Shown here piece by piece: positions 10,345 to 13,991 of a stretch of 64,000 bases of DNA. Numbering within the stretch: the first letter of the stretch is position 1; each line of letters starts with the position of its first letter. The notes under the pieces are model-generated. The model was not told the origin of the DNA and did not search any database. It saw nothing but the letters and a program-made list of their open reading frames with translations. Source of the stretch: an uncultured Elusimicrobiales bacterium (GTDB lineage: Bacteria; Elusimicrobiota; Elusimicrobia; Elusimicrobiales; Elusimicrobiaceae); contig CALUVB010000010.1 in the NCBI GenBank assembly GCA_944324115.1, positions 11,002-75,001 on the forward strand, in the 5' to 3' direction. Made by a program: the position numbers and the translations under genes.

Positions 10345-11400
<1,056 letters not shown>

Positions 11401-11471: not shown

Positions 11472-12665
11472 ATGAATTTTGACAGCATTAAAAAAGTGCA
11501 AGATGTAGATTTGAAAAATAAAAAAGTATTGGTGCGCGTGGACTACAACGTGCCCCTTAAAGACGGAAAAGTGGACAACAACAAACGTATCGTCGCTACC
11601 GAAAAAACCATCAAACATCTGCTGGATAACAACTGCCGCATCGTTTTGATGGCTCACTTGGGCCGCCCCAAAGGCAAAGTAGCGCCGGAATTTAGCTTGG
11701 CTCCGGTGGCGGAAGAAGTGCAGAGAGTGTTCGGCGTGCCCGTGCACTTTGCCAAAGACTGCGTCGGCCCGGAAGCTGACAAAGTAGTGGAAAGCGCCAA
11801 AAACGGCGAAATCGTACTCTTGGAAAATCTGCGCTTCCACCCCGAAGAAGAAAAGAATGACCCCGAATTTGCCAAACAGCTGGCCAAACATGGAGAAGTG
11901 TTTGTGCAGGAAGCGTTCGGCACCGTGCACCGCGCCCACGCCTCTACCAGCGCCATTGCGCAGTATTTGCCGGGCTCTATGGGCTTCTTGGTGCAGAAAG
12001 AAGTGGAATTTTTGGGCAAAGCGCTCAATAATCCGGCCCGCCCGTTTGCAGCTGTCATCGGCGGGGCAAAAGTGTCCGACAAAATCATGCTGCTCAATAA
12101 TTTGCTGGACAAAGTCAATGTGCTTATCATCGGCGGCGGTATGGCCTATACTTTCCTGAAAGCCAAAGGCATGGAAGTGGGCAAATCGCTGTTAGATGAG
12201 AGCAAAATTGAAGAAGCCAAACAGGTGATGGCAAAAGCCGAAGCCAAAGGCGTCAAAATGCTGATGCCGGTGGATTTCCGCTTGGCTAAGGAATTCTCCG
12301 AAACCGCAGAAGCCGTCGTGTCTGATACCATTCCCGCAGACATGGAAGGTATGGATATCGGTCCGAAAACTGAAAAATTGTTTGCAGATGAATTGCTCAA
12401 ATGCAAAACGATTTTCTGGAACGGCCCCATGGGCGTGTTTGAATTCCCCAATTTCGCCGCAGGCAGCTACGCCATCGCCAACGCGATGATTGAAGCCACC
12501 AAAAATGGCGCCATTTCCATCATCGGCGGCGGAGACAGCGTCAACGTGCTCAAAAAAGGTAAAATTGACCAGAAGGCGTTTTCGCACGTTTCCACGGGCG
12601 GCGGCGCCAGTATGGAATTTGTGGAAGGCAAAGAATTGCCCGGACTCGTTGCTTTGACGAAATAA
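11472..12665 (+). CDS. pgk: Phosphoglycerate kinase
   Basis: VRVDYNVP, HLGRP, ENLRF, GGAKVSDK, STGGGAS motifs. The ATG at 11472 follows aggaagaaggggtga. Confidence 0.99.
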   Translation: MNFDSIKKVQDVDLKNKKVLVRVDYNVPLKDGKVDNNKRIVATEKTIKHLLDNNCRIVLMAHLGRPKGKVAPEFSLAPVAEEVQRVFGVPVHFAKDCVGPEADKVVESAKNGEIVLLENLRFHPEEEKNDPEFAKQLAKHGEVFVQEAFGTVHRAHASTSAIAQYLPGSMGFLVQKEVEFLGKALNNPARPFAAVIGGAKVSDKIMLLNNLLDKVNVLIIGGGMAYTFLKAKGMEVGKSLLDESKIEEAKQVMAKAEAKGVKMLMPVDFRLAKEFSETAEAVVSDTIPADMEGMDIGPKTEKLFADELLKCKTIFWNGPMGVFEFPNFAAGSYAIANAMIEATKNGAISIIGGGDSVNVLKKGKIDQKAFSHVSTGGGASMEFVEGKELPGLVALTK

Positions 12666-12998
12666 ATCCGACACAAACAAATCCCTCCGCGTAAGCGGGG
12701 GGATTTTTATTTCATACGGGCAAAGAATTGCCCGGACTCGTTGCTTTGACGAAATAAATCCGACACAAACAAATCCCTCCGCGTAAGCGGGGGATTTTTA
12801 TTTCATACGGGCAAAGAATTGCCCGGTTTGGTCGCTTTGACCAAATAAGGCAAATCTTTGGGCTTACCCCTAATATAACACAAACCGGGCCCTGTTGTTG
12901 GGGCCCGGTCTATTTTTGTCCAAAGAATTGCCCGGGTTTTGCCACTTGGACCAAACAACCCTGACACAAACAAATCCCTCCGTTTATTAAGAGGGATT
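12627..12998 (+). repeat. Four successive copies of the pgk 3' end plus terminator
   Basis: The core CAAAGAATTGCCCGG recurs at 12629, 12721, 12812 and 12921. Units 1 and 2 (92 and 91 bp) differ by one G; units 3 and 4 are diverged. Each unit carries a hairpin. Confidence 0.95.
12679..12708 (+). terminator. pgk terminator (first copy)
   Basis: AAATCCCTCCGC-gtaa-GCGGGGGGATTTTT. Confidence 0.8.
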
Positions 12999-13033
12999 AG
13001 CTAAACAAAAACTGTTCACAAAAACTATTTATG

Positions 13034-13579
13034 CTATTGAATTCTGCAATAATATGATTTTCCATTTTCATGATCAATAAATTGAGAACTTGAGCATATG
13101 GCGGCACAAATTGTTTTTGCTTGGGCATTCCGGGCTACACAAGCATAGCCCCCAACATAAGAATAATAAATATAATAATCCGTCACCTCATTCCCGTTGC
13201 TGTTTCGGGAAGCGACAATCTCAAATCCTTCTTGTCCATCTCCGATATTATGCACATCATAAGTGAAGTTAGAGAGCACCATTTTTCCGCCATCATTTAT
13301 TTCACCATTTAACTGCAAATCCAACAGAGTTAAATCTGTCGTAGCTATGCCGTTAGACATCTGATAAACTTTCTCTGCAGTTACCAAGGCGCGCAAATTA
13401 GTTACAGCCTCCACTGCACGGGCCCGTTCCACCGCTTTAGTATATTGCGGCAGGCCAATGGCGGCTAATATGCCGATGATTAGCACCACCACCAAAAGCT
13501 CAACAAGCGTAAAACCGCCTAAACGGCGTTTTCCGAGTTTTATTACGTCGGAGATGTTTTTTTGACACATGTTATCCAT
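13034..13579 (-). CDS. Type IV pilin, PilE-like
   Basis: Class III signal G|FTLVE, hydrophobic helix LLVVVLIIGILAAIGLP, QYTKAVERAR, C-terminal Cys residues. Start placed at ATG 13579; ATG 13570 is an alternative. Confidence 0.92.
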   Translation of the reverse strand: MDNMCQKNISDVIKLGKRRLGGFTLVELLVVVLIIGILAAIGLPQYTKAVERARAVEAVTNLRALVTAEKVYQMSNGIATTDLTLLDLQLNGEINDGGKMVLSNFTYDVHNIGDGQEGFEIVASRNSNGNEVTDYYIYYSYVGGYACVARNAQAKTICAAICSSSQFIDHENGKSYYCRIQ

Positions 13580-13585
13580 ATGCAA

Positions 13586-13613
13586 AATTTATCAAAAAAA
13601 AAAAATGAGTCAA
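13586..13613 (-). promoter_or_regulatory. Candidate pilin promoter with a T12 tract in the spacer
   Basis: Minus strand TTGACT (13613-13608), 16-nt spacer ca-T12-ga, TAAATT (13591-13586). Confidence 0.65.
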
Positions 13614-13694
13614 GGCCATTCCATTGCGTGCACATTCATCTGACAAAATTTGTATAATAAATATGTTACTTTTACAGGAGAGATAGATAATTGT

Positions 13695-13991
13695 ATGCAA
13701 ACGCTTCTTCTTATTATTCATTATTTTGCGTGTGTCCTTTTGATTTTACTCGTCTTATTGCAAAGCGGCAAAGGATCCGCCGCCGGCATTTTTGGTGCTT
13801 CGGGCGCGGATAATATTTTTGCCAGTCCTACCGCTTTCAATGCCGTGAATAAATTGACGGCCGCCTTGGCTGTATTACTTTTTATAACTTCCGTTTTATT
13901 GACGATATCTTATAACAGCAAGGCTTCGTCTTCTGTATTAGACAAAGTTAATCTTCCTGTCCAGACGGCTCCAGCCACCCCGGACAAATAA
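13695..13991 (+). CDS. secG: Preprotein translocase subunit SecG
   Basis: LILLVLLQSGKG...G.FG and LNKLT-like second TM helix. RBS caggag. Confidence 0.93.
   Translation: MQTLLLIIHYFACVLLILLVLLQSGKGSAAGIFGASGADNIFASPTAFNAVNKLTAALAVLLFITSVLLTISYNSKASSSVLDKVNLPVQTAPATPDK

Follow-up and report, generated by a model that had tools for sequence, protein, structure and literature searches.

The phosphoglycerate kinase gene (pgk) of an uncultured Elusimicrobiales bacterium is followed by a tandem array of modules, each built from the pgk tail and a terminator, and this array is best explained as an ancient one that is turned over by unequal homologous recombination or slippage, an explanation to which we give somewhat better than even chances. 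The analysis started from a window of 64,000 nt (C10:11002-75001) in the source genome (G000; 1.53 Mb, 25 contigs), and positions below are those of the window unless a contig is named. The pgk 3′ flanks of relatives were taken from public genome and metagenome contigs assigned to uncultured Elusimicrobium sp., Elusimicrobiaceae, and Candidatus Avelusimicrobium. Unit types are labeled A, A', B, E, and E', and the order of units is given 5′ to 3′ from pgk.

The local gene order was gap (10387-11400), pgk (11472-12665, plus strand; identified from the ORF listing and Pfam PGK, E = 1.8e-155), the repeat array, a convergent pilin-like gene, secG, and a GNAT gene. The last 12 pgk codons (12630-12665) formed the coding part of unit 1 (type A; 12630-12721, plus strand). 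This expressed end consisted of KELPGLVALTK*, GACACAAAC, a terminator hairpin (12679-12706), and the tail TTTATTTCATACGGGC, the final 5 nt of which (12717-12721) pair with GCCCG at 12638-12642 and thereby close the unit. Unit 2 (type A; 12722-12812, plus strand) was a silent, near-identical copy of unit 1 with a terminator one G shorter, the single difference lying in the terminator 3′ arm (G6 versus G5). Unit 3 (type B; 12813-12921, plus strand), silent in this genome, encoded the peptide of unit 1 via 5 synonymous changes. A stem-loop (12812-12833 paired with 12839-12860) enclosed its last codons and stop, and was followed by CACAAAC and a bidirectional terminator (12884-12909) of the form ACCGGGCCC...GGGCCCGGT, unlike that of the first two units. 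Unit 4 (12922 to about 13000, plus strand), the last and decayed one, combined a B-like coding part with an A-like 3′ part and had lost its reading frame; on the minus strand, its hairpin (12973-12998) can be read as a terminator of the convergent pilin gene. The latter, type IV pilin-like (13034-13585, minus strand; Pfam N_methyl and Pilin_GH), is a variable occupant of the gap between pgk and secG and lies outside the repeat array. The conserved right-hand neighbor was secG (13695-13991, plus strand; Pfam SecG).

The core CAAAGAATTGCCCGG was found at 12629, 12721, 12812, and 12921, and four copies were reached in none of 100 shuffles. The motif GACACAAACAAATCCCTCCG recurred at 12670, 12762, and 12963, and the 18-nt CGGGCAAAGAATTGCCCG, which holds the 7-bp palindrome at the junctions of units 2 and 3, at 12717-12734 and 12808-12825. 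The first-pass annotation, which had read this locus as a recurrent integration site, was correct in all its statements on the sequence, namely the four-fold recurrence of pgk tail, stop, and terminator, the one-G difference between units 1 and 2, the identical peptide with purely synonymous substitutions and different terminator of unit 3, the decay of unit 4 with its share in GACACAAACAAATCCCTCCG, and the palindrome. Its interpretation was partly supported; the integration-site reading itself was not, as set out below.

The array was confined to a single place in the genome. Outside it, searches of G000 with the core, the type-B terminator, and the whole array (BLAST) returned no second copy and generic terminators only, and a dispersed element was rejected on these grounds. 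Similarly, a general process acting at all gene ends was rejected, as pgk was the sole ORF of 2577 with a genuine downstream echo of its own 3′ end.

Among relatives, at least two units (range 2-5) were present between pgk and secG in 31 of 39 related Elusimicrobiaceae genomes, whereas in other families of the order secG stood directly 3′ of pgk with no repeat (7 loci). In all of the roughly 45 arrays seen, the units abutted directly with nothing between them. One array (L149) contained five units, all encoding KELPGLVALAK* with differing codons. Tandem copies with internal differences like those of G000 occurred in many independent assemblies, and near-identical tandem neighbors in the assemblies of G000, G014, G019, x117, and L149 point to recent duplications. 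Contigs ended inside the array, within 200 nt of the pgk stop, in at least nine genomes; the missing units were found at the ends of other contigs, and combining contig ends gave at least four units in G017 and the order B-A-B-A in G011. The array is hence a recurrent cause of contig breaks in metagenome-assembled genomes (MAGs) of Elusimicrobia.

A metagenome scan with a first pattern gave no matches, and a second pattern matched six loci, of which four were further pgk arrays, one was a pgk end with a single unit, and the last was unrelated. When the type-B terminator pattern was searched in 185,579 species genomes, the matches in Elusimicrobia lay solely between pgk and secG; the other matches were chance occurrences, without pgk in their vicinity, in unrelated genomes that were mostly GC-rich. 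Types A and B were both found in clades whose PGK proteins are only ~82% identical, so that the genus-wide array is ancient and predates the radiation of the genus. The gap between pgk and secG contained 0, 1, or 2 pilins, or other genes, independent of the number of units, and some arrays (G004, G023, G014, and x118) were accompanied by no pilin at all.

Two further observations were made on these flanks. Throughout the order, secG followed pgk with no tpiA between them (window 12666-13694; L029-L035), while gap-pgk-tpiA-secG is a common arrangement elsewhere. In one genome (L019, G013:C19, last 53 nt), pgk departed from every other pgk precisely where the core begins (GGAAAG/GGAACAATC..., the slash marking the point of divergence), and the continuation past the core was not found elsewhere in the G013 genome; either an insertion at the core or a chimeric assembly could account for this.

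Close species, with PGK 96-100% identical and ~7% nucleotide divergence, nevertheless differed in the order of their units, which was A-A-B-A' in G000, A-B-A' in G021, A-B-A-B in G014, B-A-B-A in G011, and B-B-A in x118. Similarly, the sisters x116 (E-B-E') and x087 (B-E-E), with pgk 95% identical, carried matching units in another order. The type-B tail was the expressed pgk end in the sister species G011 and x118, which bears out one half of the earlier proposal that unit 3 was once a functional pgk end; the other half, its arrival by integration, found no support. Unit 1 of x124 was a chimera of the coding part of G001 unit 2 and the 3′ part of G001 unit 1, and the units of L149 shared common bodies with differing cores. 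Crossovers have therefore taken place at various points within units. In addition, G018 carried a truncated unit (L009, ~80-130 nt after the pgk stop) in which the terminator-stem CCGGGC was joined to the CCGGGC of the next core, which exemplifies a microhomology deletion within an array.

The best cross-genome match of each unit was a close relative, with an identity no higher than that of pgk, and no unit was found to be unexpectedly similar between distant species. As unit divergence tracked species divergence, the units are inherited vertically and not imported. This bears on a rival explanation, horizontal-transfer displacement as in Rhs/CDI loci, in which DNA of relatives would recombine with pgk sequence at its left end and with a short homology at its right end, so that a foreign tail and terminator are added ahead of the resident one. 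Codons often differ within one array (e.g., TTGCC versus CTTCC in G008, x073, and L149), simple, ancestral-looking terminators are always last, and the alternative C-terminal peptides LTALIK and LVALAK occur in a silent unit of one species and in the expressed unit of another, all of which would fit such displacement. However, between distant species no unit was more similar than pgk, the last 120 nt of pgk showed no general homogenization between species, and no over-represented uptake sequence was seen. An uptake sequence was rejected as a candidate, CACAAAC not being enriched in the genome and no DUS-like k-mer occurring within units. We consider displacement unlikely as the general process; it may describe the founding event.

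The silent units carried a strong signature of coding constraint. Compared with the expressed unit of their own array, internal units differed by 87 synonymous and 11 non-synonymous changes, against an expectation of 76% non-synonymous for random change (p about 1e-41, with counts that are not phylogenetically independent). The bias was seen in every clade, and the ratio indicates that internal silent units are kept translatable. No intact internal unit lacked a frame or stop, the exception being the deletion-truncated internal unit of G018. In contrast, frame or stop was lost in six last units, and last units as a class showed 92 synonymous versus 99 non-synonymous changes (a few spurious core matches included).

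All units began within 3 nt of AAAGAA (the Lys-Glu codons) and ended just past the T-run of the terminator. That the left boundary is so uniform would be expected of a single ancestral junction, and equally of a site-specific process. In type A units (91-94 nt), the tail 3′ of the terminator was complementary to the Pro-Gly-Leu codons (CCNGGAC) and the AAATAA of its own unit. The pairing between tail and codons closes the whole unit, exceeded that of all or nearly all of 200 shuffles in eight of nine units, and co-varied with the codons (CCCGGAC with GTCCGGG; CCTGGAC with GTCCAG). In type B and related units (108-122 nt), the segment right after the stop was complementary to the Lys-Glu-Leu-Pro-Gly codons. 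RNAalifold gave no consensus on type-B units, owing to bulges in the alignment of the second arm, and this stem was assessed by duplex energy and a contingency table in its place. The duplex energy of own arms was -14.6 kcal/mol on average, compared to -6.2 kcal/mol for shuffled arms and -10.9 kcal/mol when the arms came from units using the other codons. The sequence of the arm tracked the Leu-Pro codon choice (TTGCC or CTTCC; Fisher p = 0.004, ignoring shared ancestry), and the stem persisted in units without coding capacity (x071). Furthermore, CACAAAC(C) was conserved genus-wide, as was the type-B hairpin together with its loop (YGYTGTTTRG). On the minus strand, CACAAAC forms the U-rich tract of the type-B hairpin, so that units 3 and 4 can be read as terminators of the convergent pilin transcript.

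That the stems co-vary with codons and survive decay, together with the conserved type-B loop and CACAAAC, points to a function beyond simple termination. The units could be sibling small RNAs of the 3′ UTR, in each of which a 5′ stem-loop would precede a single-stranded CACAAAC "seed" and a terminator, or alternative 3′ UTRs that set the stability of the pgk mRNA. This proposal addresses the maintenance of the array and does not conflict with turnover by recombination. The architecture is like that of 3′-UTR-derived sRNAs, the units fold strongly (z = -4 to -5), the stem co-varies with codon choice, and CACAAAC and the terminator loop are conserved across species. Although a live alternative, it appears rather unlikely all the same, given that an Rfam search of the units matched no family, no promoter-like site was found within units, the strictly synonymous pattern requires translation and not RNA structure, and CACAAAC doubles as the U-tract of a minus-strand terminator.

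The stems also admit a reading as miniature, hairpin-bounded gene-tail cassettes that would be moved as folded single strands by a host enzyme such as XerCD or by another factor. A conserved, co-varying stem at the left boundary of every unit and a left boundary common to all units would be in keeping with it. It is made distinctly improbable by the restriction to a single locus per genome with no donor copy elsewhere, by crossover points that vary within units, by vertical inheritance, and by the lack of resemblance between the core and the candidate dif at C10:80474. A programmed form of such cassettes, in which host machinery would act on the stems, shuttle units into and out of the expressed position, and so switch the pgk 3′ UTR and terminator genus-wide, possibly freeing small RNAs, is improbable as well. 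Should the co-varying stems have an RNA or DNA function, the locus would be a new kind of 3′ UTR/terminator switch.

Recurrent site-specific integration, as put forward in the first-pass annotation, would have brought replacement pgk ends, within the attP of integrase-bearing elements, to a palindromic recombinase core, with the cargo lost later and the att scars left stacked. Tandem accretion at a gene 3′ end does yield stacks of displaced 3′ ends, the gene content of the gap between pgk and secG varies, and the last units are the most decayed, as expected when new ends are added beside pgk. Nevertheless, this reading is largely refuted and we rate it as highly improbable. A comparison of pgk 3′ flanks across relatives, which the annotation had proposed as a check, did reveal varying copy numbers and gap genes, but no cargo between the units of any array. 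The pilin gene, taken by the annotation for residual cargo, sits past the last unit and has no tail copies flanking it, and arrays without any pilin exist. The palindrome was restricted to two junctions, both in G000, whereas stems at the remaining 45 junctions measured at most 5 bp, mostly 2-3 bp. It arises in G000 because the closing tail of type A meets the next core.

No integrase had been noted in the window, and the whole contig that holds the window was indeed without matches to integrase or resolvase families. Elsewhere in G000, a XerC-like (C4), a XerD-like (C16), and one large serine recombinase (C4) were detected. The XerC/XerD pair constituted the only tyrosine recombinases in 15 of 25 genus genomes; serine recombinases were present in 14 and Y1 transposases in 5 of the 25. 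In several array-bearing genomes, which as MAGs are incomplete, neither a serine recombinase nor a Y1 transposase was detected. A candidate dif, ACTAACGATAA-TTTTTA-TTATGTTAACT, was located at C10:80474-80501, on the contig of pgk and ~5.5 kb past the end of the window; it is unlike the core.

The search for an external carrier, also proposed earlier, likewise gave no viral, phage, or plasmid sequence bearing the core. Viral contigs scanned for the core and the type-B terminator produced no matches, and the phage and plasmid collections held no carrier of the core. The plasmid match was a short one to the conserved 3′ coding end of pgk in a Subdoligranulum record. A phage attP was rejected as well, the sole phage match (MT835613.1) being a mislabelled bacterial gap-pgk-tpiA contig. 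In this record (L164, 13007-19065), which bears the name "Bacteriophage sp.," the genes gap, pgk, and tpiA are consecutive. The vertical inheritance of the units likewise speaks against integration. The reading would be revived if Elusimicrobia metagenomes held an element with an integrase adjoining AAAGAATTGCCSGG...LVALAK*.

The recombining tandem array thus remains our preferred explanation. The array was present in the genus ancestor, and its modules of ~90-120 nt run from the last 12 pgk codons and the stop through a structured spacer to an intrinsic terminator that is in part bidirectional. Substrates would be offered by the 36-nt coding repeat, and also by the conserved 3′ motifs, for unequal homologous recombination or slipped-strand mispairing, and a dedicated recombinase would be unnecessary. 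Such exchanges would duplicate units, delete units, and make chimeras. Deletion of one or more leading units would fuse pgk to the next one, so that any internal unit could become the working end. Promotion of this sort would place internal units under purifying selection and keep silent units translatable, and the last unit would decay because it is rarely promoted. A microhomology duplication may have founded the array; some arrays close with the initial 3-4 nt of the next core (e.g., ...CCCCAAAG followed by CGG in G001). Alternatively, the founding event may have been a single displacement by a foreign tail; simple, ancestral-looking terminators always occupy the last position.

For the maintenance of the array, the likeliest reason in our view is that it terminates transcription redundantly in both directions and insulates the highly expressed gap-pgk operon on one side from the convergent, variable pilin slot and secG on the other, possibly with an added RNA-level role of the stem-loops. 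Neutral unequal exchange would have a single copy as its absorbing state, and persistence of the array in ~80% of species therefore implies selection or bias. Taken together with the co-varying stems and the conserved loop, this persistence argues for selection.

The array was compared with known systems, including tandem terminators behind highly expressed operons and tandem repeats under unequal crossing-over or slippage. Like the latter, it consists of head-to-tail units in phase whose copy number and order vary between relatives, with recent identical duplicates and chimeras, as unequal recombination or slippage demands. It differs in that part of each repeat is the end of an essential coding sequence, that silent copies have stayed translatable over genus-level time, and that at least two diverged types have coexisted for long.

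The loci of rhs/CDI toxins contain C-terminal displacement arrays (Jackson et al., 2009; PMC2935791). As in these, alternative or former 3′ ends of one gene are stacked downstream of pgk, each starting from the same conserved block, and a silent tip can reach the expressed position by recombination. The common left homology block of such arrays has its counterpart in the start of all pgk units within 3 nt of AAAGAA. In contrast, the pgk tips encode the same peptide with synonymous differences only, the units are ~100 nt long, vertically inherited, and attached to the gene of a housekeeping enzyme, and immunity or cargo genes are absent; horizontally acquired, divergent C-termini with linked cargo were not found at this locus.

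Integrative elements and CIMEs are known to accrete in tandem at the 3′ ends of housekeeping genes, as in the case of ICESt1/CIME at fda, where the repeats flank kilobases of element DNA and need an integrase. The direct repeats of a glycolytic gene 3′ end are shared with the pgk array, which differs in having no cargo, integrase, or attP carrier. Of the features that mark att accretion, the array showed neither a cognate integrase nor flanked cargo, and neither an attP element elsewhere nor a conserved inverted-repeat core.

The pgk array resembles silent pilS cassettes and the intergenic mosaic elements of neisseriae in that silent partial gene copies lie beside a pilin locus and are recombinable into an expression site; it differs in that the copies are of pgk and not of pilin, no protein diversity results, and there is no G4 or dRS3-type site. 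An integron cassette array requires IntI, attI, and attC with RYYYAAC/GTTRRRY cores. Here, the tyrosine recombinases detected were only XerC-like and XerD-like, and CACAAAC, as judged from the sequence, does not fit RYYYAAC. Hairpin elements of the IS200/IS605 type (PATE or REP) depend on a Y1 HUH transposase and form many dispersed copies, whereas Y1_Tnp was absent in G000 and in 20 of 25 genomes, and the pgk array occupies a single locus. For elements that exploit Xer/dif (IMEX), a unit would have to hold a dif-like site; none was present in the unit, and the core is unlike the candidate dif.

Stacked gene ends are usually read as footprints of an integrase, and the pgk locus presents the same picture without a mobile element. 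Copies of this kind would normally decay into pseudogene scars. Our results suggest that, on the time scale of a genus, an essential gene can retain silent spare ends in translatable form through turnover, as recombination keeps promoting them to the working position.

Several other repeats were observed in G000. The 12-mers AAATTTATCAAA and TTTATCAAAAAA, with ~60 copies genome-wide, were among its most over-represented words, and in the window (13577-13613) they occupy the promoter of the pilin gene and its 5′ region, which suggests a large pilin family with one common promoter module. At G000:C17:53855-53955, GGATTTCTAGATAC...GACCCGCGCAAACGC, resembling a gene end with a terminator, occurred twice, 64 nt apart, with the first terminator copy degenerate; this may be a second, much smaller tail echo. 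Finally, an intergenic region at G000:C13:15858-15960 contained two identical 37-nt direct repeats (GTTCCCTTACAGTTCAAAACCAGCCACACGAACGCG...), 66 nt apart, which could be a minimal CRISPR-like remnant.
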